Assembly: GCA_900234795.1 (NCBI GenBank)
Contig: LT962688.1
Span: 2,730,001-2,762,000 of the forward strand
Direction of reading: 5' to 3'
DNA length: 32,000 nt
Source: Methylorubrum extorquens
GTDB lineage: Bacteria > Pseudomonadota > Alphaproteobacteria > Rhizobiales > Beijerinckiaceae
The notes under the pieces are model-generated. The model was not told where the DNA came from. It did not search any database and saw only the letters and a list, made by a program, of their open reading frames with translations. A program made the translations under genes and the position numbers. This document shows, in pieces, positions 1,195 through 18,535 of this stretch (its first letter is position 1; the number at the start of each line of letters is the position of its first letter).

Positions 1195-3348
1195 ATGCGC
1201 GAACATCGCAAATCGCGGACGATCGAGCACGCTCACGCCGCGGACTCGGTTGAGCGTACCCTCGCCAAGGCCATCGCCCACCGCACCGCCGGACGTTATG
1301 ACAAAGCCCGCCGCAACCTTCAGCGCGCGCTGGACGCAGCGCCGCATCACGCGGGCGCGCACCACGAACTCGGCCTCCTCACCAGCAAAGCCGACGGACC
1401 CGGACCGGCGGTCCCGCATTTCGTCGCCGCCCTGAGGGCTGAGCCCGAGCAGCCGCGCTATTGGCTCGCTCTGGCTGTGACGCTCCTCGTGCTGAACCGG
1501 CTCGACGAGGCGCGTGCCCTGATGGTGCAATTCCGCAGTCGGGACATCGCCGACGACGCATCGCGCGCGATCCTCAAGGATTTCGCCGACCATGCCTTCG
1601 CGCGGGGACAGGAGCGCTACAGCGCGGGCGACCTCGCCGCCGCGGAGACCCTGGCCGACCTCGTCATCGGCCTGGACGAAACCCATGCCAACGCGACCCA
1701 TCTCGCGGGCGCCATCGCCGCGGGGAAGGGCCGAAACCAGCAGGCGTTCGACCTGTTCAGCATCGCGATCTATCGCGAGCCCGACAACGCGGGCTATTTC
1801 AGCAGCCTCGGTGCCGTCCTGATCGCGATGGGCGACTACACCGGCGCCGTCTCGGCTCTGGAGCGGGCGGTCGCCCTCAACCCCAACCTCGCGATCGCGC
1901 ATTCGAACCTGTCCGGTGTCTATCAGCGCGTCAGCCATCACAGCGCGGCCGTGACCCATGCGCGGCGTGCCGTTGCGCTCGATCCCGGCCTCTCCAACGC
2001 GCACAACAATCTCGGTTGCAGCCTGAAGAGTCTCGGCCACCTGCCCGAGGCGCTCGCGAGTTTCGACAGGGCGCTCGCGACCGATCCCACGCATATCACC
2101 GCCCATTCCAACCGGCTGTTCACCAAGCTCTATGCCGAGGGCGTTCCGCATACCGACTACGCGGCCGACGCGCGCAGCTTCGGCGCACGCTTCGCCGATC
2201 CGCTGCTGCGCCGGCGCCCCTTCGCCAACGATCGTGATTCCGACCGCCGCCTGCGCATCGGATTCGTTTCGGGCGACCTCTGCACCCACGCCGTCGCCCG
2301 CTTCATCGAGCCATTCCTGCGCCACCTGGATCGGACGCAGTTCGCGACGCGCGCCTACATGACCCAGGCAGCGGAAGACGCGGTTTCTGCCCGCCTGCGG
2401 ACTCTGTTCGATGGTTGGCACAACATCACCGGCCTCAACGACGACGAGGCCGCCGACCTGATTGAGGCGGACGCGATCGACATCCTTGTCGATCTCTCGG
2501 GCCACAGTGCCGGTCACCGCCTGCTCGTCTTCGCGCGGAAGCCCGCACCAGTGCAGGTCTCCTATCTCGGCCATCCGGCGACGACGGGTCTGCGCGCCAT
2601 GGATTACCGCCTGACCGACCATGGTCTCGATGTCCCTGGTCAGACGGAAAGTCTGCATACGGAGATGCTGTGGTGGCTGCCGGGTGTCTCAGCGACTTAC
2701 GAACCGCCGGAGGGAGTTCCTCCGGCGCGTGAGCGCGCGCCCTTCGAGGACAATGGCTTCATCACCTTTGGCGTGATGAATCGCTTCGAGAAAATCGGCG
2801 ATGAAGCATTGCAAGCTTGGGCCGAGATCCTGAGGCTGCTACCGGATGCCCAACTGTTCATGGTTGTGGGCGACGTCGAGACGCCGGAGATCCGAGCACA
2901 GGTCGAGAACCGCTTATCGAAGGCTGGGCTCCCGATAGATCGAGTGCGTCTGCATCCCCGCACCACAACCGGCTACTTTCAGCTCTATCACCAGTTCGAC
3001 ATCGCACTCGACTCCTTCCCCTATAATGGTGGAACGACGAGTTGCGACACGCTCGCCATGGGCGTGCCCTTTATTGCCCTGCGAGGCAGCCACGCGGTGG
3101 CGCGTGTCGGTTCATCGCTGCTGGCAACGGTCGGGCTTGAGGAACTCGCAGCCGAGACGCCGGAGGATTATGTGGCTCGCACCGTAGCACTTGCGCGCGA
3201 CCCGGAACGCCTCCGCGCCCTCCGCTCAGGCTTGCGTGAGCAAGTGTTCGACAGTCCGTTGATGGATCATGCCCGTTTCGCGCAAGAGATGGGGGAAGCC
3301 TTCCGCTCCATGTGGAAGTGCTGGATCGAGACGCATCACTCCGCGTAG
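1195..3348 (+). CDS. TPR-repeat protein fused to a GT41 (O-GlcNAc transferase/SPINDLY-like) glycosyltransferase domain
   Basis: 717 aa. The N-terminal about 330 aa show repeated TPR-like A-x-x-Y/A-L-x-x-x-P-N/D helices (ALNPNLAIAHSNL, ALDPGLSNAHNNLG, ATDPTHITAHSN). The C-terminal half has OGT/SPY hallmarks (RIGFVSGDL..H, DILVDLSGHS, VQVSYLGHPATTG, DYRLTD, FGVMNRFEKI, LDSFPYNGGTTSCDTLAMGVP). Confidence 0.8.
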   Translation: MREHRKSRTIEHAHAADSVERTLAKAIAHRTAGRYDKARRNLQRALDAAPHHAGAHHELGLLTSKADGPGPAVPHFVAALRAEPEQPRYWLALAVTLLVLNRLDEARALMVQFRSRDIADDASRAILKDFADHAFARGQERYSAGDLAAAETLADLVIGLDETHANATHLAGAIAAGKGRNQQAFDLFSIAIYREPDNAGYFSSLGAVLIAMGDYTGAVSALERAVALNPNLAIAHSNLSGVYQRVSHHSAAVTHARRAVALDPGLSNAHNNLGCSLKSLGHLPEALASFDRALATDPTHITAHSNRLFTKLYAEGVPHTDYAADARSFGARFADPLLRRRPFANDRDSDRRLRIGFVSGDLCTHAVARFIEPFLRHLDRTQFATRAYMTQAAEDAVSARLRTLFDGWHNITGLNDDEAADLIEADAIDILVDLSGHSAGHRLLVFARKPAPVQVSYLGHPATTGLRAMDYRLTDHGLDVPGQTESLHTEMLWWLPGVSATYEPPEGVPPARERAPFEDNGFITFGVMNRFEKIGDEALQAWAEILRLLPDAQLFMVVGDVETPEIRAQVENRLSKAGLPIDRVRLHPRTTTGYFQLYHQFDIALDSFPYNGGTTSCDTLAMGVPFIALRGSHAVARVGSSLLATVGLEELAAETPEDYVARTVALARDPERLRALRSGLREQVFDSPLMDHARFAQEMGEAFRSMWKCWIETHHSA

Positions 3349-3407
3349 AATCTTCAAACAAGTCCCTACCGAATTGCGACCGTTGCCAGGAGGAGAGGAT
3401 CATCGAT

Positions 3408-3439
3408 GGATCGGTCCGGCTACCGATCCGGGGCGCCCC
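3408..3439 (+). terminator. GC-rich hairpin plus palindrome downstream of the TPR-GT41 gene (possible terminator)
   Basis: GGATCGGT-ccggct-ACCGATCC (8-bp perfect stem, 3408-3429), followed directly by the palindrome GGGGCGCCCC (3430-3439). It lies 60 nt after the stop at 3348. There is no clean U-tract. Confidence 0.3.
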
Positions 3440-3783
3440 GTTCCCGTTTGAGTCCGCTCCGGGTTGGATACCTTACGGCGAGGCTTCCGGTCCGATCAGA
3501 CCGGCTTCGTCCGGCGCCCGGAAACGCATCGATGCACGGGCCGGCTCGTCTCAGGACTGCCGCGCTCGCAGGAGGCGATATACGCGCGGCACGGCATGCA
3601 GCCTTGTAGGACGAGATTCTGCACGTCACGAGTAAGTGGCTTCAACCACAGGCGGCAACCACCCTGCGCAGCGGGAAGCGCTTTGTCTTGAGCGCTTTAC
3701 TACATCCTAGAATGACGCGGGTCTCGAAAGAAAATCGATCCAATATTGTCGCTTTGCGAATTCAGGGGGGCCGGGGAAAGTTT

Positions 3784-5328
3784 ATGCAAGCAAATGCTCT
3801 TGAATTCTTCCTGACGGGCGCCTTGACAAATTGTCCAGATAAAATTGCTGTTATTGACGGAGACATGCGAATTTCGTTCGCGGAGCTCGACCAGCAATCG
3901 AGACGCCTGGCTGCCCACATTTTCCAAAAAGCAAAGTCTCTGAATGAGCCCGTCGCTGTCTATCTTCCAAAATCCGCAAATATTGTACTGGCAAATATTG
4001 CTGTGATGTACTCTGGATCCATATATGCAAATATCGACACAAAAATTCCACCGCTTCGTCTAAAAAATATTCTAGATAATATCAAGCCGAAACTTATCAT
4101 CACATCAAAAGAGCGAGCCGCCGACATTCTCGGCACAACGACGGAAGTAACACGCAATCAAATTATCATTATCGATGACATTTTTGGGCAGGCATACGAC
4201 GAGAACGAAGATGCGAGATCACGCAATTTCGATCAATTAATTGACACGGACCCCATCTGCATCATTAACACTTCCGGCTCAACCGGTACTCCAAAAGGCG
4301 TTGTACTCCATCATCGTGGCGTGATCGACTTCATGAACTGGGTGTTCGAGGAGTTCGATTTCGACGAGAGCACCAGCATCGGGAGTCTTTCGCCATTCTA
4401 TTTCGATATATATATACTCGAACTTTTTCTCTGCTTGGCAAAAGGGGCGACGATCGTCATTATTCCTGATAAACTGGCAATATTTCCGGCCAAGCTCATG
4501 GAATTTGTTGCAAGGGAGGGTGTCAATTTCCTGTTTTGGGTTCCATCGATCATGGTCAACATTGCGAATCTTGGTCTATTAGAGAAAATTCCGCTCCCAG
4601 ATCTGCGAACGATTTTCTTTGCTGGCGAGGTGTTTCCAACTCGACATCTCAATCAGTGGCGCCAAGCCCTCACAGACGTCGCGTTTGTCAATTTGTACGG
4701 TCCCATCGAAATCCATGTCGATTGTACTTTTTATGTCGTAGAGGGTGAGATTGCAGATGACCAGCCATTGCCGATCGGCAAGCCTTGCCGTAACACCGAT
4801 ATCATTATCCTCAATGAAGTTGATCAACGTTGTGCGGCCGGCGAGCAGGGTGAACTTTGCGTGCGCGGCAGTTCGCTCAGCAGCGGGTATTGGAATGACC
4901 CAGAAAAGACGAGCCGCGCGTTCGTACAAAACCCTCTCAACACCTGTTATCCCGAATTGATCTATCGCACGGGTGACCTTGCCGTGCGACGTGTCGATGG
5001 CTTGATCTACCTGGTCGGACGCAAGGATTATCAGATCAAGCACATGGGATATCGTATCGAGCTTCCGGAAATCGAACACCAAGTCTTGAGAATTCCCGGT
5101 ATCGCTAACGCCTGCGTCGTATATGATAACTCGAAAAAGGCGATTACGTTGTTCTATCAGCCATCCGGCAAGGATGTGTCGCAAGCAACGATACGTCGGG
5201 CGCTGTCGGAGATTTTTCCAAAGTATATGCTGCCGACGGCGTATCACTCGATGGAAGGGCTGCCAATGAACGCGAACGGAAAAATCGATCGCAATGGCTT
5301 GGTACTTTCGCTTGCGGAAGACGGTTGA
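3784..5328 (+). CDS. Stand-alone amino-acid adenylation enzyme (DltA-like carrier-protein ligase, AMP-binding superfamily)
   Basis: ATG at 3784 preceded by GGGGAAAG. Adenylation cores are present: NTSGSTGTPKGV (A3), YFDIY (A4, Asp retained), NLYGPIE (A5), YRTGDL and GRKDYQIKHMGYRIELPEIE (A7/A8), NANGKIDR (A10). About 514 aa with no C, T or TE domains. GC is markedly lower than in the flanks. Confidence 0.85.
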   Translation: MQANALEFFLTGALTNCPDKIAVIDGDMRISFAELDQQSRRLAAHIFQKAKSLNEPVAVYLPKSANIVLANIAVMYSGSIYANIDTKIPPLRLKNILDNIKPKLIITSKERAADILGTTTEVTRNQIIIIDDIFGQAYDENEDARSRNFDQLIDTDPICIINTSGSTGTPKGVVLHHRGVIDFMNWVFEEFDFDESTSIGSLSPFYFDIYILELFLCLAKGATIVIIPDKLAIFPAKLMEFVAREGVNFLFWVPSIMVNIANLGLLEKIPLPDLRTIFFAGEVFPTRHLNQWRQALTDVAFVNLYGPIEIHVDCTFYVVEGEIADDQPLPIGKPCRNTDIIILNEVDQRCAAGEQGELCVRGSSLSSGYWNDPEKTSRAFVQNPLNTCYPELIYRTGDLAVRRVDGLIYLVGRKDYQIKHMGYRIELPEIEHQVLRIPGIANACVVYDNSKKAITLFYQPSGKDVSQATIRRALSEIFPKYMLPTAYHSMEGLPMNANGKIDRNGLVLSLAEDG

Positions 5329-6141
5329 ATGGAACTTCTGCGCGATTGGGACGCTTGGCGGCGCCTGATTGGTGCGGTGCCACGGGACACGAAGACCTAC
5401 ACCACAAACCTGTACGCCACACGTGAGCAAATCGAAGGCTGGTGTGCCGACGGCCGATTATACGCACTGAGCACTGGCCAAGCTGTGCTTCTACTGCGCG
5501 CTGACCGCAGCTTTCACCACATCCATCATGTAGCGAGAGATCTAACCGCGCTCGCTGACGCGCTCGGTGCGTTGCACGCAGGGACCTACACGGCCGACAT
5601 TGTCGGACAGGGAGAACAGCTCGATGAGGTGTGCGCCACCTATGCCGCCAGCGGCTTTGCGGTTCATACCTTCTTACAGCGAATGATCCATGTCGGAAGA
5701 CTGGAGTCAGCACGCGAGGATGACGCGACAATTGCTGCAGCCGAAGAGGCGGCCGAAGTCGTGGCCTTGCTTGAGCGGCTGCTGGATCGCTTCGCGGAGC
5801 CGGTGCCGGAGGTGGTCGCACTACAGCAAGAGGCACGTGACGGACGTCTCCTCATCGTCCGTCGAGACGGTGTGATCGTCGGCATGCTCCTGTACGAGAT
5901 CAAAGGACGGATGGCGCATTTGCGCCTATGGCACGTGGATGATACCGCGCGTGGCCAGGGCATGGGACACCGCCTGATGAGAAGTTTTCTCGCGCGATGC
6001 GCGCAGGCGCAGGTGCAGCGCGTCGTGCTTTGGGTGATCGGCGACAACGTGCAATCCATCGCCATATACCGGCATTACGGCTTCGTGCCCGACGGGCTGC
6101 TCGATCGCATCATGATTCGACGCGAGGGACCACATCGATGA
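5329..6141 (+). CDS. GNAT-family acyltransferase with an uncharacterised N-terminal half
   Basis: ATG immediately follows the preceding TGA. The C-terminal about 110 aa carry the GNAT motif A region (RGQGMGHRLMRSFLARCAQAQVQRVVLWVIGDNVQSIAIYRHYGFV). I recognise no motif in the N-terminal about 150 aa. Confidence 0.7.
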   Translation: MELLRDWDAWRRLIGAVPRDTKTYTTNLYATREQIEGWCADGRLYALSTGQAVLLLRADRSFHHIHHVARDLTALADALGALHAGTYTADIVGQGEQLDEVCATYAASGFAVHTFLQRMIHVGRLESAREDDATIAAAEEAAEVVALLERLLDRFAEPVPEVVALQQEARDGRLLIVRRDGVIVGMLLYEIKGRMAHLRLWHVDDTARGQGMGHRLMRSFLARCAQAQVQRVVLWVIGDNVQSIAIYRHYGFVPDGLLDRIMIRREGPHR

Positions 6142-6368
6142 GCAGAGTGCTCGATATTCTCGCGCAGATCCGCCCCGAGGTTGATTTTGAACGATCGCAA
6201 GATTTCTTCGAGGATGGCCTGCTCGACTCGTTCGATCTGGTGACGCTCGTGTCGGAGCTGGACAAAACCTATGGCATCTCGATCGATGGCATGCATATCG
6301 TGCCGGAGAACTTCCACAATGTCGCTGCCATCGAGGCGCTTCTGACACGAAGCGGGGTAGTGCCGTGA
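6138..6368 (+). CDS. DltC-like (D-alanyl-type) carrier protein
   Basis: ATGA overlap with the GNAT stop. 76 aa. FFEDGLLDSFDLVTLVSELD closely resembles the DltC phosphopantetheine site (FEEGLLDSF...) and differs from the classic FAS ACP DSL motif. Confidence 0.8.
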   Translation: MSRVLDILAQIRPEVDFERSQDFFEDGLLDSFDLVTLVSELDKTYGISIDGMHIVPENFHNVAAIEALLTRSGVVP

Positions 6369-7441
6369 GACTATCCTACCGGGACAAGGCGATCTCGGGC
6401 CTTCTGACCGTGGTGCCGGCGAACGAGCGTAAGTTCGTCGACGAAATGGAAAACTTCAACTTTTCACGCGCACGGTCGCTCAAGCTCAAGGAGGTCATGG
6501 GCTACGATCGTCACCGCATCGTCGCCGGTCCCGTCTGCGCGTCTGACTTGGCGATAGCCGGCATCGAGCACGTGCTGACCCGCGGCCATCTCGCACGCGA
6601 AGACATCGGTGCCTTGATCGTCGTCACGCAGTCGCCGGATTACCTGATGCCGGCCACATCGCATGTCGTGCAGGGCCGACTGGGTCTTCATACCGACATG
6701 GTCTGTATGGACATCAACCAGGGGTGTGCCGGCTTCATCATTGGTTTGATGCAAGGCTTCATGCTGCTGGAGCAGCCGGCCGTCGCGAAGGTCGTGCTGG
6801 TGAACGTCGATGTCATGAGCCGCAAGGTGTCTCCTCGCGATCGAAACAGCTTTCCCCTGATCGGAGACGCGGCGTCGATCACGGTTCTGGAGCGCCGAGC
6901 CGACGCAGGCGTCATCGAGGCGGATCTGAAGATGGACGGCGCGCGCCACGAGGCGCTGATGATCCCGGCGGGTGGGTTCCGTCGTCCTTCCAACTCCGAA
7001 ACCGCGGAGATGATGCAGGACGTCGAAGGTAACGTGCGTTCGCTCGATCACCTCAAGATGGACGGTTCGGCAGTCTTCAATTTCGTGATGACCGAAGTCC
7101 CTGAATTGATCGGTGGCCTCCTCGCGCGCACCGGGACGACCGTAGCAGACGTGGATGTTTTCCTCTGTCATCAGCCAAACCGCTTCATGCTGCAGAAGCT
7201 CGCCGACAAGCTTTCCGTTCCGCACCAAAAGATGCCGAGCAACATCGTCGAGAATTTCGGGAATTCGAGTGGCGTGACGATTCCGCTCGCGGCGACCTTC
7301 AATTTGGCTGACGCGCTTCTGAACGATCGTAAGAAGGTCTGCCTTGCCGGATTTGGTGTCGGTCTGACCTGGGGCGCCATGCTGATGGAGCTTGGACCGC
7401 TCAGTTTCTGCGAGATGATCGAATATCGAGAGGACGTATGA
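6365..7441 (+). CDS. KASIII (FabH-like) 3-oxoacyl-ACP synthase III family enzyme
   Basis: GTGA overlap with the carrier-protein stop. 358 aa. The Cys-His-Asn triad contexts are present: DINQGCAGF, FLCHQPNRFM, ENFGNSSGVTIP. C-terminal GFGVGLTWGA. Confidence 0.85.
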   Translation: MRLSYRDKAISGLLTVVPANERKFVDEMENFNFSRARSLKLKEVMGYDRHRIVAGPVCASDLAIAGIEHVLTRGHLAREDIGALIVVTQSPDYLMPATSHVVQGRLGLHTDMVCMDINQGCAGFIIGLMQGFMLLEQPAVAKVVLVNVDVMSRKVSPRDRNSFPLIGDAASITVLERRADAGVIEADLKMDGARHEALMIPAGGFRRPSNSETAEMMQDVEGNVRSLDHLKMDGSAVFNFVMTEVPELIGGLLARTGTTVADVDVFLCHQPNRFMLQKLADKLSVPHQKMPSNIVENFGNSSGVTIPLAATFNLADALLNDRKKVCLAGFGVGLTWGAMLMELGPLSFCEMIEYREDV

Positions 7442-7442
7442 G

Positions 7443-7661
7443 ATGGACGAATTCCTGACGGAGATGTCCGAAATTCTCGAGGAAGATGTCACTATGTCGG
7501 ACGAACTGGGCCGTTTCGAGAGTTGGGACTCGCTCGCGAGCCTCTCGGTCATGGCAATGGCCGACAGCAAATTCGGTGTCAGGATCGGTCCGCAGGAGCT
7601 CAACCCCGCGATGACCCTCGATCAGCTCTACACCCTGATCCGCTCCAAAAAGGCGTCGTGA
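7443..7661 (+). CDS. Acyl carrier protein (second, distinct type)
   Basis: Starts 1 nt after the KASIII stop. 72 aa with FESWDSLASLSVM (DSL phosphopantetheine serine context). Confidence 0.75.
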   Translation: MDEFLTEMSEILEEDVTMSDELGRFESWDSLASLSVMAMADSKFGVRIGPQELNPAMTLDQLYTLIRSKKAS

Positions 7662-7665
7662 CACG

Positions 7666-8436
7666 GTGGCGGATCTCAACCCGCTGCGGCTGGACGGCCG
7701 TCACATCCTGGTGACCGGCGCGAGTTCGGGCATCGGGCGCAGGACGGCCCTGATGCTGCACGCGCTTGGCGCCAGCCTGTCGGTGGTGGACCGGGATGAG
7801 GCGGGACTCGCTTCCCTCGATGCGGAACTCTGTGCAGGCAAGGGGGTGGCCCGGCAAGTGGCAGACCTGTCCGACATTGCAGGCATTGAGGAGTTGGTCA
7901 GCCGTTGCGTCGCCGCTGGCGGAAAGCTGCACGGTGTCGTGCATTGCGCCGGCATCCAGGAGATCATGCCGGTAAGAACGCTGCAGATCGACGGCTGGCG
8001 GCGGATCTTCGCGGTCAACACTGAGGCAGCCTTGATGCTTGGCAAATGCCTGTCGAGCAAGAAGGTCTATGCCGGCAATCACGGCTCCATCGTGTTCATT
8101 TCGAGCGTGATGGGGATGGTCGGCTCGGCCGGGGCCGTCGCCTACTCGATGAGCAAGGCGGCCCTGGACGGAATGGCCCGGTCCCTGTCGCTCGAACTCG
8201 CGCCCCGCGGTATCCGCGTCAACTGTATCGCGCCCGGCTTCGTGCGGACCCCACTCTTCGAACAGACCGAGAGATTGTGGGACGAAGCGACAAGAAAGGC
8301 TGTCGAGGATCTGCATCCGCTCGGTTTTGGCGAAGCAGAAGACGTCGCTCATGCCGTGGCCTTTCTTGTCGCTGATACCGGTCGCTGGATTACCGGTTCG
8401 ACATTGGTCGTTGACGGTGGTTACTTGGCGCGCTGA
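7666..8436 (+). CDS. Short-chain dehydrogenase/reductase (FabG-like 3-oxoacyl reductase)
   Basis: GTG 4 nt after the ACP stop. TGASSGIGR cofactor motif, catalytic YSMSKAAL (Y-x3-K), IAPGFVRTP, C-terminal GSTLVVDGG. Confidence 0.85.
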   Translation: MADLNPLRLDGRHILVTGASSGIGRRTALMLHALGASLSVVDRDEAGLASLDAELCAGKGVARQVADLSDIAGIEELVSRCVAAGGKLHGVVHCAGIQEIMPVRTLQIDGWRRIFAVNTEAALMLGKCLSSKKVYAGNHGSIVFISSVMGMVGSAGAVAYSMSKAALDGMARSLSLELAPRGIRVNCIAPGFVRTPLFEQTERLWDEATRKAVEDLHPLGFGEAEDVAHAVAFLVADTGRWITGSTLVVDGGYLAR

Positions 8437-8454
8437 ACTCTTGGAAAAAGCCTG

Positions 8455-9216
8455 ATGTCTGAGCCGCCCGCACCTGCAACCTACGTCCTGATCACGGGTG
8501 CATCGTCCGGCATCGGCCGCGATATGGCGATTTCACTGTCCGGCGAGCACAGACTGATCCTCAACGGCCGTGATGCGGAGCGCCTCGAACAGACACGGCT
8601 GGCGTGCCAGGCGCCTGACCGGCACCGGTGCTGGCCGCACGACCTTGCGGATGTCACGACGCTCGCTTCAGCGCTGCCCGCCTTCCTGCGGCAGCACGAC
8701 GCCCTTGTCGTCGGCTTCGTGCACTGCGCGGCGCAACTGAAGGTGCTGCCGTTGCGCAGCATTACCATCGCGCATGCCCAGGACGTGATGAACACGAACG
8801 TGCTCGCAGCATTGGAGATCACGCGGCTTTTGCTGCGCAAGGACGTCAACAGCAAGATGTTGACGAACATCGTGTTCGTCTCGAGCATCGCCAGTCAGTT
8901 CGGCGCCAGGGGGTTCACCACCTATTGCGCCAGCAAGGCTGCGCTGGACGGCCTGATGAAGGCGTTGGCCGTGGAACTCGCGCCAGGGGTGCGGGTCAAC
9001 TCCGTATTGCCGGGCTCCATCCGAACGCCCATGACCGAAACCATTTTTGCTGATCCGGTGACAGCCGAGCGCTTGGTGAAGGATTATCCGCTCGGCATCG
9101 GCCTGCCTTCCGACATCACGCATGCGGTTATTTTCTTGATGTCTGATCAAGCGCGCTGGATCACCGGTCATCAGATGGTTGTCGATGGCGGTCGTTCGGC
9201 AAATATCTCCGCATGA
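8455..9216 (+). CDS. Short-chain dehydrogenase/reductase (second copy, divergent)
   Basis: ITGASSGIGR, YCASKAAL (Y-x3-K), VLPGSIRTPM, GHQMVVDGG. Its sequence clearly differs from the upstream SDR. Confidence 0.85.
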   Translation: MSEPPAPATYVLITGASSGIGRDMAISLSGEHRLILNGRDAERLEQTRLACQAPDRHRCWPHDLADVTTLASALPAFLRQHDALVVGFVHCAAQLKVLPLRSITIAHAQDVMNTNVLAALEITRLLLRKDVNSKMLTNIVFVSSIASQFGARGFTTYCASKAALDGLMKALAVELAPGVRVNSVLPGSIRTPMTETIFADPVTAERLVKDYPLGIGLPSDITHAVIFLMSDQARWITGHQMVVDGGRSANISA

Positions 9217-9842
9217 AACCTTTCGTCATCGTCGGCGCCGGCGGCCTCGGGCGCGAACTGTTGGGCTGGATCGCGAATTGTGGCCCCGATACTCGCAGGC
9301 GCTTTCAGGTGGCGTCCTTCATCTCGGAGTGGAAGGACGCTGGAAGCCTCTGTCACGGTGTTCCGGTCTGTCACCCCAACGATTGGAGGGGTCCTGCTCC
9401 CCGTTTTGTCATCGGCCTATCCGACCCAATCGAAAAAAAGCGCATCGCGCTATCCCTGCAGGCGCGCGGATGGGAGGCAGAGACGTTCATTCATGACAGC
9501 GTCGCATCCGGCTTGGCTCCGAAGATCGGTGCCGGAACGGTGATCTGCCCGCGTTGCTGCATCTCGACCGATTCTGAGATCGGCGAGCATGTATTGATCA
9601 ACTCTGCCTCCGGCGTCGGCCACGATGCCATCGTTGGCGATTACACTTCGCTGCTCGGTGCAGTGAGCATCAACGGCAATGTCACGGTCGGAGAAGGCGT
9701 TTTGTTCGGAGCCGGGAGCATGGTTCACCCCGGCAAGAAGATCGGCAGCTGGTCTACAATCGGTCTTGGGAGCGTTGTAATTCGGAATGTGCCCGACAAA
9801 GCAGTCATGTTCGGCAATCCGGCCCAGCGCATTGATGCCTAG
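9213..9842 (+). CDS. NeuD/PglD/VioB-type left-handed beta-helix (hexapeptide) acyltransferase
   Basis: ATGA overlap with the SDR stop. N-terminal Rossmann-like MKPFVIVGAGGLGRELLGWI (PglD_N type). C-terminal hexapeptide repeats (IGEHVLINSASGVGHDAIVGDYTSLLGAVSINGNVTVGEGVLFGAGSMVHPGKKIG). Confidence 0.8.
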   Translation: MKPFVIVGAGGLGRELLGWIANCGPDTRRRFQVASFISEWKDAGSLCHGVPVCHPNDWRGPAPRFVIGLSDPIEKKRIALSLQARGWEAETFIHDSVASGLAPKIGAGTVICPRCCISTDSEIGEHVLINSASGVGHDAIVGDYTSLLGAVSINGNVTVGEGVLFGAGSMVHPGKKIGSWSTIGLGSVVIRNVPDKAVMFGNPAQRIDA

Positions 9843-9926
9843 CACTACCTGGACGCTTTGGGTGAGGTTGCAAATTCCAATCTGATCCACCCCCATTGAA
9901 ATGGCCCGCCCTGAGGTATGGCTTTT

Positions 9927-10095
9927 TGAGCGAGTGGGGCTGACCCTTTTTCTGGTCCAAGTCCTATGCAAGCTTTCGGACTGTGACAGATTACTTAGCG
10001 AAAGCTCGGGGCGTCACGCCATCCAAAGCCGTATGGGGTCGATCTTTGTTGGCGTGGCACCTGCACTTCTCAATTCGCCCACGCGCATCCGCCAC
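9927..10095 (-). mobile_element. Truncated IS3-type (rve/DDE integrase-core) transposase 3' remnant, with possible terminal inverted repeat
   Basis: Hand translation of the minus strand 10092->9991 gives ADARGRIEKCRCHANKDRPHTALDGVTPRAFAK*. This matches the conserved C-terminal end of IS3-type OrfB (A-R-x-x-I-E-x-W-R-x-x-Y-N-x-x-RPH-x-x-L-x-x-x-TP-x-x-F), with W->C and Y->A degeneration. No upstream catalytic region is present. TGAGCGAGTGGGGCTGACCC at 9927 (TG... end, 64 nt past the stop) could be the IR, but this is speculative. Confidence 0.5.
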
Positions 10096-10115
10096 CGACC
10101 CTCTGTACGAGCCTG

Positions 10116-11180
10116 TTACGCCGCTTGCTCGAACCCGACGCCCGGTGAAAAGACCGACCCGAACAGATCCTTCGGGTCCTTCGGCTCGGGGATGAGGTCA
10201 AGGCCCGGTCCGGGGCCGGCGATGTCCCTTAGGCAGCGCAGGGCCGAAAAGTCCTCCAGCGCGAAGCCGACCGAGTCGAACAGGGTGATCTCGTCGTGGC
10301 CGACGCGGCCCGGCGCGTCGCCGCGCAGCACGCGCCACAATTCGGTGACGGGATAGTCCGCGGGCATCTGCTGGATCTCGCCCTCGAGGCGCGATTGCGG
10401 CTCGTATTCCACGATCGTGCGGGCACGTGCCACGATGTCGACGTGCAACTCGGTCTTGCCGGGGCAATCGCCGCCGATGGCGTTGAGATGCTGGCCCGGC
10501 TCGACGAGGCCGGGGGTGAGGATCGTGGCGCGGGTCTTATCGGCGGTCGCCGTGGTCACGATGTCGGCGCCCGCCACTGCCTCAGCGATGGAGTGGGCGC
10601 AGACGAGCCGCAACCCATGGCCCTCGAGGTTGGCCCGCGCCTTCGCCATCGCCGCCGGATCGAGGTCGAACAGCCGGATCTCGCTGATGCCGAGTGCGAG
10701 CTTGAAAGCGAGGGCCTGGAACTCGGCCTGCGCGCCGGTGCCGATCAGCGCCATGGAGCGGCTCTCGGGCCGTGCGAGACGGGAGGCCGCGAGTGCCGAG
10801 GTCGCCGCCGTGCGCAGGGCCGTCAGCAGGCTCATCTCGCAGATCAGCAGCGGATAACCGGTCGCCACGTCGGCGAGCATGCCGAAGGCGACGACCGTCT
10901 GCTTGCCGAGACGGGTATTGCCGGGATGACCGTTGACGAACTTGAAGCTGTAGAGCTGCGCGTCCGCGATCGGCATCAGCTCGATCACCCCGCCGGCCGA
11001 GTGGCTCGCGAGGCGCGGGGCGAGATCGAACTCGGGCCAGCGCAGGAAATCGGCGCGCAATTCATCGATGAGGCGACGCAGGATCGGCTCCGGTCCCTCT
11101 CGGCGTAGCAGAGCCGCCATTTCACCACTACCAATATAACGCGTCACGTCCGTCTCCCGAATCTTCCGTGGCGCAAGCAT
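10116..11180 (-). CDS. ocd: Ornithine cyclodeaminase / mu-crystallin family protein
   Basis: HSAGGVIELMPIAD, FKFVNGHPGN, LTALRTAATSALA, Rossmann GTGAQAEFQALAF, NAIGGDCPGKTE. Start set at internal M (MLAPRK...) so that the gene does not overlap the divergent lrp. The exact start is uncertain. Confidence 0.8.
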   Translation of the reverse strand: MLAPRKIRETDVTRYIGSGEMAALLRREGPEPILRRLIDELRADFLRWPEFDLAPRLASHSAGGVIELMPIADAQLYSFKFVNGHPGNTRLGKQTVVAFGMLADVATGYPLLICEMSLLTALRTAATSALAASRLARPESRSMALIGTGAQAEFQALAFKLALGISEIRLFDLDPAAMAKARANLEGHGLRLVCAHSIAEAVAGADIVTTATADKTRATILTPGLVEPGQHLNAIGGDCPGKTELHVDIVARARTIVEYEPQSRLEGEIQQMPADYPVTELWRVLRGDAPGRVGHDEITLFDSVGFALEDFSALRCLRDIAGPGPGLDLIPEPKDPKDLFGSVFSPGVGFEQAA

Positions 11181-11277
11181 GGCTGAGACGAGCGAACAAT
11201 CGACAGCCGGTGAAATGCGAGATCGGGACAGACAATCGACCGATCTGCTAAGCTCGGCTGCTCGAAGTGGAAAGGCC

Positions 11278-11703
11278 ATGCTCGACGCGACCGATCGTCA
11301 GCTCATCGCCCTGCTGCGCACCGAGGCGCGGATGCCGGTGGCCAAGCTCGCCGCGGCGCTCGGCGTCACGCGGGCGACGGTGCGGGCTCGGCTCGACCGT
11401 CTGGTGACGTCCGGAATCATCACCGGCTTCACCGTCACGGTGCGGGACGTAGAGCCCGGAGGCGTGCGGGCGGTGACGCTGATCGAGGTGGATGGGCGCC
11501 ATGCCGAGAGCGTGATCCGCCGCCTGTCCGGCCTGCCGGAGATTCGGGCGCTTCACACCACCAATGGCCGCTGGGATATCGTCGCCGAGATCGAGGTGCC
11601 GACGCTCGGCGATTTCGACGCGCTGCTGCGCACGATTCGTCAGTTCGAGGGGATCGCCAATTCCGAGACCAGCATCCTGCTCGCGGCCCGGAAGGGCGGA
11701 TGA
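11278..11703 (+). CDS. Lrp/AsnC-family transcriptional regulator
   Basis: ATG at 11278 preceded by GGAAAGG. MLDATDRQLIALLRTEARMPVAKLAAALGVTRATVRARLDRL (HTH) plus a C-terminal RAM/AsnC_trans_reg-like domain. Divergent from ocd. Confidence 0.85.
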   Translation: MLDATDRQLIALLRTEARMPVAKLAAALGVTRATVRARLDRLVTSGIITGFTVTVRDVEPGGVRAVTLIEVDGRHAESVIRRLSGLPEIRALHTTNGRWDIVAEIEVPTLGDFDALLRTIRQFEGIANSETSILLAARKGG

Positions 11704-11787
11704 GCCAGGGGCACCTCGTGTGACGCCCGGTCACGCATCGTTCTCGGTCCGGCCACGAAGGCGCGGCGGGAACGCTGCCGGTGCCGC

Positions 11788-12246
11788 TTAAGCCGGCACG
11801 CCGTAGATCGCGGTGGCGCGGCCCTCGAACGCATCGGTGAACTTGCGGAAGGCGCGGTCGAACATCGTGCCCATGAGAAGACCCAGGGTCCGGCTCTTGA
11901 ACTCGTAGGTGATGAAGAAATCGACCTCGCAGCCGCCGCCCTCCGCATCGCGGAAGGACCAGCGATTCTCCAGATGCCTGAACGGACCGTCGATATATTC
12001 GGCGACGATCTTGCGGTTCTCGCGGTCGAGGCTCACGCGGGTGGTGAAGCGCTCGCGGATCGCCTTGTAGCCAACACCCATCTCGGCGACCCGCACCGTC
12101 GTGCCGTTCGGCCCCTCCGCGTCGCGCAGCACCCGCAGCGATTCGCAGAGCGGCAGGAACTCGGGATAGCGCTCGACATCGGCGACGAGGTCATACATCT
12201 GCGTCGCTGAGTGACGCACTTTCCTCGTGATGCGGAAGGATGGCAT
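11788..12246 (-). CDS. SRPBCC-fold protein (RatA / COQ10-like START domain)
   Basis: 152 aa. MPSFRITRKVRHSATQMYDLVADVERYPEFLPLCESL is the typical N-terminus of this family. Sits directly downstream of lipA, as is common in alphaproteobacteria. Confidence 0.8.
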   Translation of the reverse strand: MPSFRITRKVRHSATQMYDLVADVERYPEFLPLCESLRVLRDAEGPNGTTVRVAEMGVGYKAIRERFTTRVSLDRENRKIVAEYIDGPFRHLENRWSFRDAEGGGCEVDFFITYEFKSRTLGLLMGTMFDRAFRKFTDAFEGRATAIYGVPA

Positions 12247-12252
12247 TCGGGC

Positions 12253-13272
12253 TCAGGCGTTGACGGCGCGGATGCTGGCAGCCACCGGCGCGGTTCCGAG
12301 CTTGGCCAGACGAGCCGCCTTCAGCCGGGCGAAATCCTCGCCGGCGTGATGCGACGAGCGCGTGAGCGGCGTCGCCGAGACCAGCAGGAAGCCCTTGGCA
12401 TAGGCCGTGGTCTCGTAGGCTTTGAACTCGTCCGGCGGCACGAAGCGCACGACCTCATGGTGCTTGCGGGTCGGTTGCAGATATTGGCCGATGGTGAGGA
12501 AGTCGACCTCCGCCGAACGCAGATCGTCCATGAGTTGCACGACCTCGTTCCGTTCCTCGCCGAGGCCGACCATGATTCCGGACTTGGTGAAGATCGTCGG
12601 ATCGAGCTCTTTCACGCGCTGCAGCAGGCGCACCGAGTGGAAGTAGCGGGCACCGGGCCGCACGGTCACGTACTTGCCGGGCACCGTTTCCATATTGTGG
12701 TTGAACACGTCGGGCTTGGCCGCGACCACGACTTCGAGGGCGCCGGGCTTGCGCAGGAAGTCGGGTGTCAGGATCTCGACGGTGGTGCCGGGGCTCGCCC
12801 TGCGGATCGCGGCGATGGTCCGCGAGAAATGCTCGGCGCCGCCATCCTTGAGGTCGTCGCGATCGACCGAGGTGACGACGACGTGGTGCAATCCGAGCTT
12901 GGCCACCGCCTCGGCGACCTTCTCCGGCTCGGCCTCATCGAGCGCCGCCGGCAGACCCGTGCGCACGTTGCAGAACGAGCAGGCGCGGGTGCAGGTGTCA
13001 CCCATGATCATGAAGGTGGCGTGCCGCTTTTCCCAGCACTCGCCGATATTGGGGCAGCCCGCTTCCTCGCAGACCGTGACGAGGTTGTTGGCGCGGACGA
13101 TGTCCTTGGTCTCGGCCCAGAGCTTCGAACCCGGTGCCTTCACCCGGATCCAGTCCGGCTTGCGCTGGATGGCGGTGTCCGGCCGGTGCGCCTTCTCGGG
13201 ATGGCGCGGACGCGCGGGCGCATCCAGCTTCGGCCGGGTGTCTTTGTTCAGGAGATCGAGGACAACGGCCAT
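12253..13272 (-). CDS. lipA: Lipoyl synthase
   Basis: [13 protein letters not shown] auxiliary cluster motif and radical-SAM [10 protein letters not shown]. 339 aa. Confidence 0.95.
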
Positions 13273-13405
13273 GGCGATGCGGGGTGAGCCTCACGGGAGC
13301 CGGACCGGGCAACCCGGCCGCATCCCTGACTTAAGGCCTTGCGGTGCCTGCGCATAGGGCGGGGGCGACAACCCGCCCCGGCCGTAACCCCGTCGATGAA
13401 CCGTT

Positions 13406-14143
13406 CTAATGCTTGTCGCGGGCAGGCGCCGAGGCGTAGCGGGCCGGGCCGGGGATGCGCAGCTCGGGGGCCGTCGGGGCGGTGTACTCGGCGGTCAGCG
13501 TCGGCTGGACGCGGCCGGTGAGCGGAAGGCCGATCATGCCGGAATTCGCGGCGGCGACCTGAAGCGGCATCAGGCGGCCGGTGGCCGTCTGCACCACGGC
13601 GCGGGGCTGGACCGCCGGGAGGTAACCTTCGCGGTCGCTCTTCTCGTAGAAGACGTTGCCGCCGGCCGCGACGACGTAGTGCATGTTGTTGTAGGGGAAC
13701 TTGTAGCCCGCGGTGTGGAAGTGCAGCGCCGGCCCCACCCCGTCGTGGCGCTTGCCGGAGAGCAATGCGTCGGCGACCCGCTCCAGCCGCGGCCGGTCCT
13801 GGTCACGGACGGGCTTCGTCAGCACGCCGTTGGCGAATTGCCGCTTCTGACCGACGACTTCGCAGATCCGGCCGGGATAAGCCGGCGCGTCGAGGCGGTT
13901 CATCACCACCGTGCCGACGGCGAGCAGCCCTTCCTCGTCGCTGCGGTTCGACTCGAAATACATTGCCCGGGCGAGGCATTCCTTGTCGGCAGGGGTCGGC
14001 GGCTGCACGACCTTGGCGTTCATCGCGATGGAGCCGGTGGTCAGCTCAGCCTGATGCGGAAGCAGACCGCATCCCCCAAGACCCGAACCGGTCAGCGCTA
14101 GCCCAGAAAGGCAGAGGAGACGGAGGGTCCGGTCGGCTCGCAT
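13406..14143 (-). CDS. SleB-type cell wall hydrolase, exported (possible lipoprotein)
   Basis: CLARAMYFESNRSDEEGLLAVGTVVMNRL...ICEVVGQKRQFA is the Hydrolase_2/SleB core. Start chosen at M (MRADRTLRLLCLSGLALTGSGLGGCG), preceded by AGGAG. LGGC is a possible lipobox. Confidence 0.8.
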   Translation of the reverse strand: MRADRTLRLLCLSGLALTGSGLGGCGLLPHQAELTTGSIAMNAKVVQPPTPADKECLARAMYFESNRSDEEGLLAVGTVVMNRLDAPAYPGRICEVVGQKRQFANGVLTKPVRDQDRPRLERVADALLSGKRHDGVGPALHFHTAGYKFPYNNMHYVVAAGGNVFYEKSDREGYLPAVQPRAVVQTATGRLMPLQVAAANSGMIGLPLTGRVQPTLTAEYTAPTAPELRIPGPARYASAPARDKH

Positions 14144-14353
14144 GCAGGCTCCTGAAGGCTGACGACGTTGGTAACCAAGCTGGACCATTCCGCCCACAGG
14201 TGCAAAGAAACTGTTAAGCCTGGGCATCGAAACCGGGGTGGTGTGTCGTTTGGCACACGCTCACCCTTCCGCGCTCACACGCGACCGGCATTGAACGGAA
14301 TCGCGACCTTGGGCGTTGACGGCGTTGGATCAGCGTCAGCGAAGGGCCGGGCC

Positions 14354-14569
14354 ATGACGGAAACACGTTCGGAAACGCCCGCCGCTTTCGAAGAGCGGAT
14401 GCGCGCAGAGGCGGCCGCGGCCGGACGCACCGCGCTTGAGGCCTCGCTCCAACGCTTCACCCAGGAACAGCGCGACGCCTTCTGGAACGCGATCGGGCTC
14501 TACTATGCGAGCCGCCGCCATCCGGGCGCCGACGCGGCGGCCGTGCCACTGGCTGCCACGGCCGCCTGA
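14354..14569 (+). CDS. Hypothetical small protein
   Basis: 71-aa ORF from an internal ATG (MTETRSETPAAFEERMRAEAAAAG...), Ala/Arg-rich. No recognisable motif. Only codon-position GC bias supports it. Confidence 0.3.
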   Translation: MTETRSETPAAFEERMRAEAAAAGRTALEASLQRFTQEQRDAFWNAIGLYYASRRHPGADAAAVPLAATAA

Positions 14570-14590
14570 TCGGTCCTCGCGGAGTTTTCG

Positions 14591-15937
14591 ATGCGCACCT
14601 CTGCCAAGGTTGGCCTTGCCGCGCTCGCTGTCGTGCTGCTCGGTGGGGCGGCCTTGCTGCGTTTCGTCGTCTATCCGGAATCCGCTGCGCTCGACGTGGC
14701 GGCGAGCAGCGGGTCAAGTCCGGCCCTGCCGGCGCCGAACCCGACGCTGATGCCGACCGTCAACATCGCCCGCGTGGCGCGCTGGGCGGAGGGCGCCAAG
14801 CCGAACGCCGCGGAGGGCCTGAGCGTCGCCGCCTTCGCGACCGGGCTCGACCATCCGCGCTGGCCCGTGGTGCTGCCCAATGGCGATGTGCTCGTTGCCG
14901 AGAGCCAGGCGCCGAAATCCGGCGATCACTCGACCAGCGTCACCGATTGGGTGGCCGACAAGGTGAAGAGCCTCGCCGGAGCCGGCGGCGCGAGTCCGGA
15001 CCGCATCGTGCTCCTGCGCGACCGGGACGGGGACGGCGTGGCCGAGGAGCGCCACGTCTTCCTCAAGGGGCTTACCTCGCCCTTCGGCATGGCGCTGGTC
15101 GGCTCCGATCTCTACGTGGCCAATGCCGACGCGCTGGTCCGCGTCCCCTACGCCGAGGGCCAGACCGAGATCACGGTGACCCCGGAAAAGGTCGTCGACC
15201 TGCCCGCCGGCATCAACCACCACTGGACCAAGAACGTGGTCGCGAGCCCGGACGGACAAAAGCTTTTCATCACCGTCGGCTCGAACAGCAATGTCGGCGA
15301 GAACGGCCTCGACATCGAGAAGGGCCGCGCCGCGATCTGGGAATACACGATCGCCACCAAGGCGATGCGCGAATACGCCACCGGCCTGCGCAACCCCAAC
15401 GGTCTCGCCTTCGAGCCGGTGACCGGCGCCCTGTGGACCGCGGTGAACGAGCGCGACGAGATCGGCAGCGATCTCGTGCCGGACTACATCACCCGCGTGA
15501 AGGAGGGCGCCTTTTATGGCTGGCCCTGGAGCTACTGGGGTCAGCACTTGGACGAACGGGTGCAGCCGCCGCAGCCGGAGAAGGTGAAGCAGGCGATCGC
15601 GCCCGACTACGCCGTGGGCACGCACACGGCCTCGCTGGGCATCGCTTTCGCGACCGGGTTGAGCCTGCCGGATGCCTGGAAGAGCGGTCTCTTCGTCGCT
15701 CAGCACGGTTCCTGGAACCGTCGGCCGAAGAGCGGCTACAAGGTGATCTACGTGCCCTTCAAGGATGGCCAGCCAGCCGGCGCCCCGGTCGATGTGTTGA
15801 CCGGCTTCCTCAACGCCGACGAGAAAGCCCAGGGGCGGCCCGTCGGCGTGGCGATCGACAAGGCCGACGCGCTTCTCGTGACGGACGATGTCGGCAATGC
15901 GGTGTGGCGGGTGACAGGCGCCGCAGCCTCGAACTGA
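14591..15937 (+). CDS. PQQ-dependent sugar (sorbosone/aldose) dehydrogenase family protein, exported
   Basis: N-terminal hydrophobic signal/anchor ([18 protein letters not shown]). Beta-propeller GSDH-like blocks ([75 protein letters not shown]). Confidence 0.8.
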
Positions 15938-16102
15938 TCGACGGCCGGCACCTTCCGGCCTGACCGACCCATGACGACGCGCTTCATCCGCTCGTCATCG
16001 CGAGACGTCGGTGGGGCAACACCGACAGGCCGAGATCGTCGATCTCACGCAACGGCGTGTGGCGGGATCATCCGGCCGTCGGCGGCTTAGATGCCCTGAC
16101 CC

Positions 16103-16747: not shown

Positions 16748-16825
16748 CCCAGACAACGTTCCTTCGAAGATGCGCCCCACCGCCCCCGCTTCAAGCGGTG
16801 CGTCTTACCGCCACGCCTTAAATCG

Positions 16826-18505: not shown

Positions 18506-18535
18506 GCGAACGACCCTGTCCAACCCACGCAATAA

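Follow-up and report, generated by a model that had tools for sequence, protein, structure and literature searches.

We analysed a 32,000-nucleotide stretch of Methylorubrum extorquens DNA (contig LT962688.1, positions 2,730,001 to 2,762,000; hereafter the window) and describe here a cassette of eight genes, g1 to g8, located at positions 3784-9842 on its + strand. The encoded proteins appear to be an amino-acid adenylation enzyme, an acetyltransferase of the GNAT family, two different carrier proteins, a condensing enzyme of the KASIII type, two short-chain dehydrogenase/reductases (SDRs) and a sugar N-acyltransferase. We propose that these genes act as one portable module that assembles, on the two carrier proteins, one N-acyl substituent destined for an amino sugar, through a stepwise, aminoacyl-primed route, and we give this reading a probability of about one half. 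The starting points are observations of gene content, catalytic motifs, gene order and partner genes, and of an exchange of the GNAT for a formyltransferase; from these we infer the chemical steps, the amino acid, the sugar and the protein target.

How phages, plants and immune systems perceive flagella, O-antigens and capsules depends on the N-acyl groups that amino sugars carry, and the genes for most exotic acyl groups are unknown. The cassette ties a defined, portable gene set to such decoration and offers a concrete, testable hypothesis, namely that its KASIII is primed by an aminoacyl carrier protein. The cassette and the sequence immediately upstream of it comprise the following features:

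1195..3348, + strand: GT41 partner gene, encoding a 717-aa protein glycosyltransferase with tetratricopeptide repeats (TPR) and a GT41 (OGT/SPINDLY-type) domain, upstream of the cassette
3349..3783, no strand: 435-bp spacer separating the GT41 gene from g1, presumed promoter region
3784..5328, + strand: g1, free-standing amino-acid adenylation enzyme (A domain), proposed loader of CP1
5329..6141, + strand: g2, tandem GNAT, proposed N-capping (acetylating) enzyme
6138..6368, + strand: g3 (carrier protein 1, CP1), predicted aminoacyl carrier protein
6365..7441, + strand: g4, KASIII-type condensing enzyme
7443..7661, + strand: g5 (acyl carrier protein 2, ACP2), predicted malonyl/extender carrier
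7666..8436, + strand: g6 (SDR1), accessory FabG-like reductase
8455..9216, + strand: g7 (SDR2), predicted core ketoreductase
9213..9842, + strand: g8, left-handed beta-helix (LbH) sugar N-acyltransferase of the NeuD/PglB/VioB family

Organization of the cassette

A check of the open reading frames (ORFs) in the window bears out an earlier, preliminary description of eight genes packed as one series. The g1 and g2 genes abut, ATGA overlaps join g2 to g3 and g7 to g8, a GTGA overlap joins g3 to g4, and gaps of 1 nt and 4 nt separate g4 from g5 and g5 from g6, all as first described; an 18-nt gap between g6 and g7 can be added. The domain calls made at that stage (adenylase, GNAT, carrier protein, KASIII, ACP, two SDRs and a NeuD/PglD-type transferase) likewise hold in hidden Markov model searches, and domain searches confirm that the cassette contains no thioesterase, condensation domain, polyketide synthase (PKS) module or phosphopantetheinyl transferase. 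For g1, the ATG at 3784 was preferred as the start over that of a longer TTG ORF from 3688, because homologues are 510-516 aa long and DNA homology to M. rhodesianum begins at 3783. All eight genes and the GT41 gene are under purifying selection, with dN/dS values of 0.05-0.23 relative to M. rhodesianum.

The cassette recurs with its gene order intact

We searched one genome per species with the tandem-GNAT gene as query, and found this gene in five genomes only: M. rhodesianum, Sphingomonas sp. BK580, two metagenome-assembled genomes (MAGs) of Sphingomonadales and one MAG labelled Obscuribacterales. Each of the five contains all eight genes in identical order, with similar start/stop overlaps. 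A metagenome scan with the KASIII alignment then recovered at least 506 stretches that encode a relative, and the best 80 loci were mapped. CP1 lies immediately upstream of KASIII in 68 of the 68 testable loci, and an adenylase is found no more than 1.5 kb upstream in 34 of 36. The order and the overlaps recur in every related locus examined, far beyond what chance would produce. The initial view of a single coupled carrier-protein acylation unit with two differing carriers holds.

The tandem-GNAT family, for its part, counts 330 representatives at E<=1e-30 (clusters at 50% identity, among 1.84 billion). Part of the interest of the cassette lies in this abundance, with at least 506 relatives in one metagenome scan alone. 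The family is common in soils and peat and nearly absent from cultured, named genomes.

The surroundings of these relatives fall largely into two kinds. In Sphingomonadales, as on numerous metagenome contigs, the cassette lies within polysaccharide clusters of the Wzx/Wzy (and Wza/Wzc) type, usually directly after a DegT aminotransferase gene and a gene for a PglC-like phosphoglycosyltransferase of about 200 aa. GT4 enzymes, flippases, Wzy/EpsG, a Polysacc_synt_2 dehydratase and UDP-GlcNAc 2-epimerase are encoded nearby, and two of these contigs look plasmid-like. The preliminary description had left both product and acceptor open; for the class of acceptor this no longer fully holds, given that DegT and often a PglC-like gene flank most relatives. 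The second kind is flagellar. In four metagenome lineages, three of them with flagellar genes, we found a series made up of TPR-GT41, DegT, in some cases PhyH, formyltransferase, adenylase, CP1, KASIII, ACP2, SDR1, SDR2 and hexapeptide transferase, placed as follows:

L019: series after two flagellin genes, fliD and fliS, and before rpoN and fleQ
L081: series between flgIJKL and flagellin-flaG-fliD
L032: series with fliD upstream
L097: same series, with no flagellar gene visible on the short contig

The flagellin glycosylation islands of Pseudomonas syringae and P. aeruginosa likewise occupy the flgL-to-fliD stretch of the flagellar cluster (PMC3927599).

A separate observation concerns the Candidatus Obscuribacterales MAG (L008, 49% GC), in which the eight genes have the order and spacing seen in the Sphingomonadales MAG L009. 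This match reflects either horizontal transfer or a binning error.

A GT41 glycosyltransferase travels with the cassette

The cassette had been called an orphan. This does not stand: besides recurring widely, it has been accompanied by the upstream TPR-GT41 gene (1195-3348) to three differing chromosomal sites in three Methylorubrum genomes. When the window is compared with M. rhodesianum or M. zatmanii, DNA homology is confined to the GT41 gene and the cassette, and homology to other Methylorubrum genomes stops at the gene borders. The three sites are:

Window: ABC exporter and LMWPc-like genes, then the pair, then ocd
M. rhodesianum: kdpDE-EIIA, then the pair, then lysR
M. zatmanii: crp, then the cassette with inverted GT41 gene, then a Cys/Met-metabolism pyridoxal-phosphate enzyme gene

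The GT41 gene is 84-86% identical to the cassette-adjoining copies in M. rhodesianum and M. zatmanii, which stand at these other sites and in other orientation. Its product matches PF13844 (Glyco_transf_41) at 141.9 bits (cut-off 25), together with many TPR families, and its best PDB matches are SPINDLY (7y4i, 3.8e-96, residues 181-710), human OGT and 5djs, a TPR protein from a bacterium. Identity to the corresponding protein of the flagellar locus L019 is 34%. Because the GT41-cassette series recurs in flagellar loci, the pair is probably best read, by analogy with those loci, as a decoration unit for a flagellin glycan, or at least a protein glycan.

Flagellin O-glycosyltransferases of the FlmG class in Caulobacter consist of a TPR N-terminal and a GT-B C-terminal domain (PMC7591256). 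The window GT41 protein has the same two-part build, TPR then GT-B, and the likeness is one of domain build alone. In contrast, FlmG transfers pseudaminic acid, and the window locus has no nonulosonic-acid genes. The match to the OGT/SPINDLY GT41 family is strong, and homologues of the window protein lie beside flagellin genes. An OGT/SPINDLY-type GT41 tied to flagellar loci in several lineages would add a further kind to the bacterial glycosyltransferases that act on flagellin, next to those of the Maf, FlmG and Fgt types.

Enzymes of the proposed loading and capping arm

The g1 product matches the AMP-binding family and exceeds the amino-acid adenylation model TIGR01733 (342.6 bits, cut-off 317.4), and the closest single PDB domain is the module-2 A domain of LgrA (204 bits). 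Its 10-residue code, DILFFALVDK, retains Asp235 and Lys517, from which the substrate can be taken to be an amino acid, and is invariant in six cassettes at 64-77% identity. This code was mapped by hand with PheA numbering, and the motifs were cross-checked on an alignment with LgrA. It shares five to six positions with Gly and Ser codes and does not permit a call of the substrate.

In g2, the Pfam Acetyltransf_1 match is limited to residues 162-252. The initial assignment as a GNAT holds and can be refined to a tandem GNAT, exchangeable with a formyltransferase, in which the N-terminal half is degenerate and the C-terminal half carries the pyrophosphate-binding loop RGQGMG with invariant G211 and G213. 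The C-terminal half is the predicted active half. The AF2 model has a pLDDT of 93.5, and its top Foldseek matches were MshD (2c27, 2.9e-13), MAB_4324, VipF and WecD, and the fold also resembles glucosamine N-acetyltransferases.

The g3 carrier matches PP-binding at 26.8 bits (cut-off 20.8) and has an invariant serine motif, LDSFDL. It had been described as DltC-like. Both g3 and g1 miss the equivalog cut-offs of the Dlt system (DltC, TIGR01688, 28.6 against 52.35; DltA, TIGR01734, 275.9 against 559.85), so the term stands as a resemblance and not as membership; DltB (MBOAT) and DltD domains are absent among the cassette and flanking ORFs. Dlt-type D-alanylation was therefore rejected on both counts, the missed cut-offs and the lack of DltB/DltD. 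Identity as a nonribosomal peptide synthetase (NRPS) was also rejected: a condensation domain is lacking, and the A domain is encoded apart from the carrier.

The g1 gene stands apart in composition, with a much lower GC content (47.8%) than the other seven genes (55-64%) or the flanks (about 67%). Its synonymous sites are saturated relative to M. rhodesianum (dS 3.07), as compared with 0.46-0.71 for the GT41 gene and the others. On such sequence features, the g1 allele looks as if it had been swapped in from a lower-GC donor, with nonetheless the same specificity code.

Condensing, reducing and transfer enzymes

The g4 product matches ACP_syn_III and ACP_syn_III_C, with closest PDB matches to 4efi and 3gwa. 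As first noted, its Cys-His-Asn triad is intact, and the corresponding motifs (NQGCAGF, CHQPN and FGNSSG) are invariant in 12 homologues, so that decarboxylative condensation is expected rather than mere acyl transfer. Its scores against housekeeping FabH models are all below cut-off (NF006829, 198 against 249; TIGR00747, 163.6 against 292.1; NF009519, 182.9 against 436), which by sequence places g4 within the KASIII fold and family and apart from the FabH of fatty-acid synthesis. The EcFabH CoA contacts Trp32 and Arg36 (in a reference numbering that was off by one) are missing in g4, which is not diagnostic of the primer source.

The window copy of g5 has no Pfam match and a weak NCBIfam ACP match; its orthologues match PP-binding, and the serine motif WDSL is invariant. 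Both reductases match adh_short_C2, g6 at 179 bits with an S...YSMSK motif and g7 at 131 bits with a YCASK motif. SDR1 (g6) is deleted in M. zatmanii and missing from the variants with an AAC(3)-like enzyme described below; SDR2 (g7) is the SDR retained in every reductase-containing variant examined. A reading as housekeeping fatty-acid synthesis genes was rejected, on the grounds of missed FabH, FabG and ACP equivalog cut-offs, the low GC content of the island and its differing sites in sister species.

The terminal transferase, g8, was likewise correctly recognized as a VioB/PglD type: it exceeds the cut-off of TIGR03570 (NeuD/PglB/VioB; 165.0 bits against 160.8, residues 4-205 of 209), and its closest PDB entry is VioB (7txp, 1.4e-22), followed by 4m9c, PerB and PglD. 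The N-terminal, Rossmann-like GxGG motif VGAGGLGRE and, in the beta-helix domain, the GHD motif within GVGHDA are conserved in 11 orthologues, and we take the GHD His to be catalytic from what is known of PglD and PerB. Judging by the DegT and PglC-like neighbours in relatives, g8 may act on a nucleotide-diphosphate amino sugar.

Variants of the cassette

The core of the cassette consists of the A domain, CP1, KASIII and ACP2, which SDR2 and one terminal N-acyltransferase usually join. Accessory to these are SDR1 and the cap enzyme, which is a GNAT or a formyltransferase. Four types of variant bear on how the parts work together, and they give the most telling clues to the chemistry.

First, the M. 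zatmanii locus (L022, 11570-15064) has a Formyl_trans_N gene in the slot of the GNAT. A remnant of the GNAT C-terminus, PDGLLDRILIRHEDPRQ, is fused before CP1. Of SDR1, N- and C-terminal remnants are left within a 115-bp spacer; KASIII, ACP2, SDR2 and the hexapeptide transferase are intact at 81-87% identity. The islands of the GT41 type (L019, L032, L081 and L097) also have a homologous formyltransferase and no GNAT, again with KASIII, ACP2 and SDR2 intact. The closest PDB relatives of the cassette formyltransferase are ArnA and sugar N-formyltransferases, with no LgrA among the matches at E<=0.001. Formyltransferase variants have one carrier-dependent terminal transferase for two carriers.

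Second, in AAC3-type variants an AAC(3)-like N-acetyltransferase replaces the SDR2-adjacent LbH protein, and SDR1 is dropped. Third, a locus on a 2.7-Mb replicon of Paenibacillus cellulosilyticus (L024, 4286-10723) encodes an ACP, an SDR, an AAC(3)-like enzyme, an adenylase, a tandem GNAT, CP1, KASIII and an MBL-fold hydrolase. The block A-GNAT-CP1-KASIII persists here though ACP2 and the SDR sit elsewhere, upstream with the AAC(3)-like gene.

Fourth, relay variants (L096, and also L062, L079, L088 and L090) have the order A-GNAT-CP1-KAS-ACP-KAS-(methyltransferase)-ACP-KAS-SDR-SDR, with three KASIII genes and extra ACPs, and GNATs and FdtA can follow. In the L096 locus (7420-18717), the methyltransferase is CMAS-like, the SDRs number two and the small GNATs three, FdtA is present, and a gene for a 2439-aa adhesin-like protein adjoins. 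This arrangement suggests longer, methylated, amino-acid-primed chains for a 3-amino sugar.

Two further observations concern less complete or more distant relatives. In L054, L065, L073, L076 and L078, the order is A-GNAT-CP1-KASIII-ACP2 with no detectable SDR or terminal transferase, and a DegT-like aminotransferase gene lies a few kb downstream. On an Azospirillum thermophilum plasmid (L025, 6469-16147), a more distant KASIII with 35% identity occurs with an SDR and a GNAT; its neighbours encode a PhyH dioxygenase, an acylneuraminate cytidylyltransferase, a radical SAM enzyme and a methyltransferase, which makes it another FabH-containing glycan locus of the nonulosonic-acid type.

Proposed route and its alternatives

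In the route that we favour, g1 would activate a small alpha-amino acid (Gly, Ala and Ser are possible) and load it onto CP1. The tandem GNAT would then acetylate the free alpha-amine, as the formyltransferase would do with a formyl group in sister cassettes; capping would, by our reasoning, also block lactamisation of a gamma-amino-beta-keto thioester. KASIII would take the N-capped aminoacyl group from CP1 onto its Cys and condense it with malonyl-ACP2 to yield a 4-(acylamino)-3-oxoacyl-ACP2, with malonyl loading and phosphopantetheinylation presumably performed by housekeeping enzymes. SDR2 would reduce the 3-oxo group, and g8 would move the 4-acetamido-3-hydroxyacyl group onto the amine of a nucleotide-activated 4-amino-4,6-dideoxyhexose. 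In Methylorubrum, the adjacent TPR-GT41 protein would probably O-glycosylate a protein, most likely flagellin, with the decorated sugar; in Sphingomonadales the decorated sugar would enter a Wzx/Wzy polysaccharide instead.

This aminoacyl-primed model accounts for all of the variants, the role of SDR1 aside. That the GNAT is exchangeable with a formyltransferase points to N-capping, and the chains of KAS and ACP genes imply that a carrier protein is the source of the primer for KASIII enzymes of this family. Support also comes from the adjacency of CP1 and KASIII (68 of 68), from the A-GNAT-CP1-KASIII block that persists in Paenibacillus, and from the formyltransferase variants with their one carrier-dependent terminal transferase for two carriers. 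Moreover, KASIII, ACP2 and SDR2 are intact in the formyltransferase variants, where a condensing arm that merely supplied a cap would be pointless.

The main alternative is that two acyl pieces are joined by an amide bond. KASIII, ACP2 and a reductase would make 3-hydroxybutanoyl-ACP2 from acetyl-CoA, the A domain and CP1 would provide an aminoacyl group, the GNAT would couple the two, and g8 would place the N-(3-hydroxybutanoyl)-aminoacyl product on the sugar amine. Such a substituent occurs in E. coli O123 and Salmonella O58, as N-(3-hydroxybutanoyl)-D-alanyl-Qui4N; other O-antigens contain N-acetyl-alanyl or N-acetylglycyl amino sugars (PMC7685785, PMC3210612). Furthermore, a KASIII/ACP/reductase/VioB set is genetically tied to 3-hydroxybutanoyl-viosamine (PMC3927599), and the gene set of the window fits, as it includes the two transferases needed (GNAT and LbH); AAC3-type variants likewise have two. 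The formyltransferase variants, however, have no GNAT and yet retain KASIII, ACP2 and SDR2, such that no enzyme is left to couple the 3-hydroxybutanoyl group. Strict adjacency of CP1 and KASIII (68 of 68) and the relays with several KASIII genes are also left unexplained. We regard the amide-joined route as a serious candidate, if a rather unlikely one.

A third possibility is that the cassette provides two independent decorations: CP1 would supply an aminoacyl group, N-capped or not, and ACP2 a 3-hydroxybutanoyl group, and these would be placed on differing amines or sugars by the GNAT and the hexapeptide transferase, respectively, with the GNAT or formyltransferase acting directly on a sugar amine. 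The GNAT fold does match WecD and glucosamine N-acetyltransferases, the formyltransferase is nearest to ArnA and sugar N-formyltransferases, and di-N-acylated diamino sugars and nonulosonic acids are common. However, most loci have a single DegT-type aminotransferase near the cassette, the formyl variants have one carrier-dependent transferase for their two carriers, and the A/CP1 and KASIII/ACP2 arms were not seen apart where both are testable (34 of 36). We consider this explanation improbable.

Finally, the cassette might have no glycan role in Methylorubrum and produce a small diffusible or lipid-linked metabolite of the N-acyl amino-acid type, with the GT41 neighbour a hitch-hiking accident. 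The Paenibacillus homologue would fit such a function, being associated with an MBL-fold hydrolase gene and no sugar genes between secA/prfB and arg genes, as would the window, which is without any sugar-nucleotide gene. Against this, g8 exceeds the curated cut-off for NeuD/PglB/VioB sugar acyltransferases, the GT41 gene accompanies the cassette at three independent sites in Methylorubrum and in at least four further lineages, and the remaining contexts are nearly all loci for polysaccharides or flagellar glycosylation. The idea thus seems very improbable for Methylorubrum, and the Paenibacillus version may be a non-glycan use of the same chemistry.

Several points weigh against the aminoacyl-primed route itself. 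KASIII could just use acetyl-CoA, as VioS is thought to do. The GNAT resembles WecD and the formyltransferase resembles ArnA and sugar N-formyltransferases, so a sugar amine could be the substrate of both. The model assigns no role to SDR1, which the amide-joined route likewise leaves unexplained. The literature searched contains no report of a 4-amino- or 4-acetamido-3-hydroxyacyl substituent on a sugar, and there is ample documentation of N-(3-hydroxybutanoyl)-alanyl, N-acetyl-alanyl and N-acetylglycyl groups (PMC7685785, PMC3210612). The Paenibacillus locus is flanked by secA/prfB and yitT/argCJBD, with no sugar genes. The preliminary description noted no aminotransferase, dehydratase or nucleotidyltransferase within the island, and no such gene is found in the whole window; there is no flagellar gene either, and DegT, phosphoglycosyltransferase and formyltransferase genes or their remnants are absent across its 32 kb. 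The acceptor and protein target proposed for Methylorubrum are drawn by analogy with relatives, and the enzymatic activities and host glycan structures are predictions from genes alone.

Taken more broadly, and more tentatively, the loci may represent a widespread and undescribed class of free-standing NRPS-PKS hybrid relays. In these, of which the cassette would be the first example, KASIII would be primed by an N-capped aminoacyl carrier instead of an acyl-CoA, with the chain in some relatives passed on through further KASIII/ACP pairs, to place gamma-(acylamino)-beta-hydroxyacyl groups on amino sugars, and TPR-GT41 proteins would install the sugars on flagellin.

Comparison with known systems

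Taken as a whole, the cassette appears not to have been characterised, as initially supposed, and the closest characterised system is the viosamine island of P. syringae together with its counterpart in P. aeruginosa PAK. In P. syringae pv. tabaci, this island comprises vioA, vioM, vioT, vioS (KASIII), vioB, vioR (reductase) and acp, and makes N-(3-hydroxy-1-oxobutyl)viosamine on flagellin; a homologous OrfA-D part is present in the PAK flagellin glycosylation island (PMC3927599). The preliminary description was correct on the Pseudomonas set. What it stated of Campylobacter jejuni held in part: Cj1303 is FabH2 and lies beside Cj1305/6, and the label of amino-acid activation for Cj1307 could not be confirmed.

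The viosamine island matches the window in having, within one locus, a KASIII and a dedicated ACP along with a reductase of the FabG type and a transferase of the VioB type (g4, g5, g6/g7 and g8 in the window). It also decorates a 4-amino-4,6-dideoxyhexose that is used on flagellin, and the window relative L081 has the same position between flgL and flagellin genes. However, the viosamine island has no adenylase, second carrier, or GNAT or formyltransferase, and has one reductase instead of two. Its glycosyltransferase is VioT or Fgt, whereas the partner in the window is TPR-GT41, and it holds its own aminotransferase gene, whereas the window is without DegT and most of its relatives have one. 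VioS, VioB and VioR were compared with the window cassette by gene content and description. Relative to the known modules of the vioS/vioR/acp/vioB type, the cassette has four additional parts: an adenylase, a second carrier, a cap enzyme and a second reductase.

The O123 and O58 substituents resemble the proposed product in being amino-acid-containing N-acyl groups on a 4-amino-4,6-dideoxyhexose, made up of an amino acid and a C4 hydroxy-acid or small cap. They differ in connectivity, which is amide-amide in these antigens; the aminoacyl-primed route would introduce a carbon-carbon link and, when acetyl-capped, give an isomer of the same elemental composition, with net C6H9NO3 for Gly and C7H11NO3 for Ala. 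Since the predicted product is isomeric with N-(3-hydroxybutanoyl)-aminoacyl groups, structures assigned by mass alone could be mis-assigned. The literature searched yielded no gene-level accounts of amino-acid-containing N-acyl groups, and none of the O123 or O58 clusters, which are compared here by substituent chemistry alone; blastn of 3784-7441 against all complete E. coli genomes gave no match.

In Vibrio cholerae, the wbe/rfb K-O genes encode reductases, a carrier protein and a terminal transferase, together with an activating enzyme that depends on ATP. This system is a looser analogue, likened by described roles, in that a hydroxy-acid is built and N-acylates a 4-amino-4,6-dideoxyhexose; in the O1 antigen, tetronate is attached to perosamine, involving wbeL (PMC3441752). 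In contrast to the cassette, it is without KASIII and without an A domain of the amino-acid type, and its context is a homopolymer O-antigen.

The initiation module of LgrA (F-A-PCP) is similar in logic, as an amino acid is adenylated, tethered, N-formylated or capped, and handed on; the M. zatmanii cassette has the discrete order A-F-CP. Unlike LgrA and the ketosynthases of hybrid NRPS-PKS systems, however, the parts in the window are all free-standing, with no condensation domain, a KASIII in place of a modular ketosynthase, and a sugar amine as the proposed acceptor. A functional analogue is the AHBA side chain of butirosin, whose assembly on BtrI makes use of an N-protecting group.

Neighbouring sequences

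The spacer at 3349-3783 has no homology to the corresponding M. rhodesianum spacer and no Rfam match, the sole Rfam match in the window being a tRNA-His at 31801. It holds only short, unsupported ORFs (3312-3635 and 3464-3691). Scans for consensus promoters and terminators gave counts equal to those in shuffled controls and are therefore uninformative. No direct or inverted repeats, tRNA, integrase or insertion sequence were found adjoining the island in the window.

Upstream of the GT41 gene, a 112-aa ORF (690-1028) overlaps the stop of an ABC exporter gene. Only its first ~24 residues match the low-molecular-weight phosphatase family (LMWPc), at 22.6 bits, slightly below cut-off. This ORF is kept in M. 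extorquens strains and is elsewhere unlinked to the cassette. The exporter and the LMWPc-like ORF were considered as members of the unit and rejected, being absent beside the M. rhodesianum and M. zatmanii copies.

Downstream, and unrelated to the cassette, the window encodes a pyruvate dehydrogenase E1 beta subunit with an N-terminal lipoyl domain (22342-23790), within an E1alpha-E1beta-E2-E3 operon adjoining lipA. This is a known arrangement in alphaproteobacteria.

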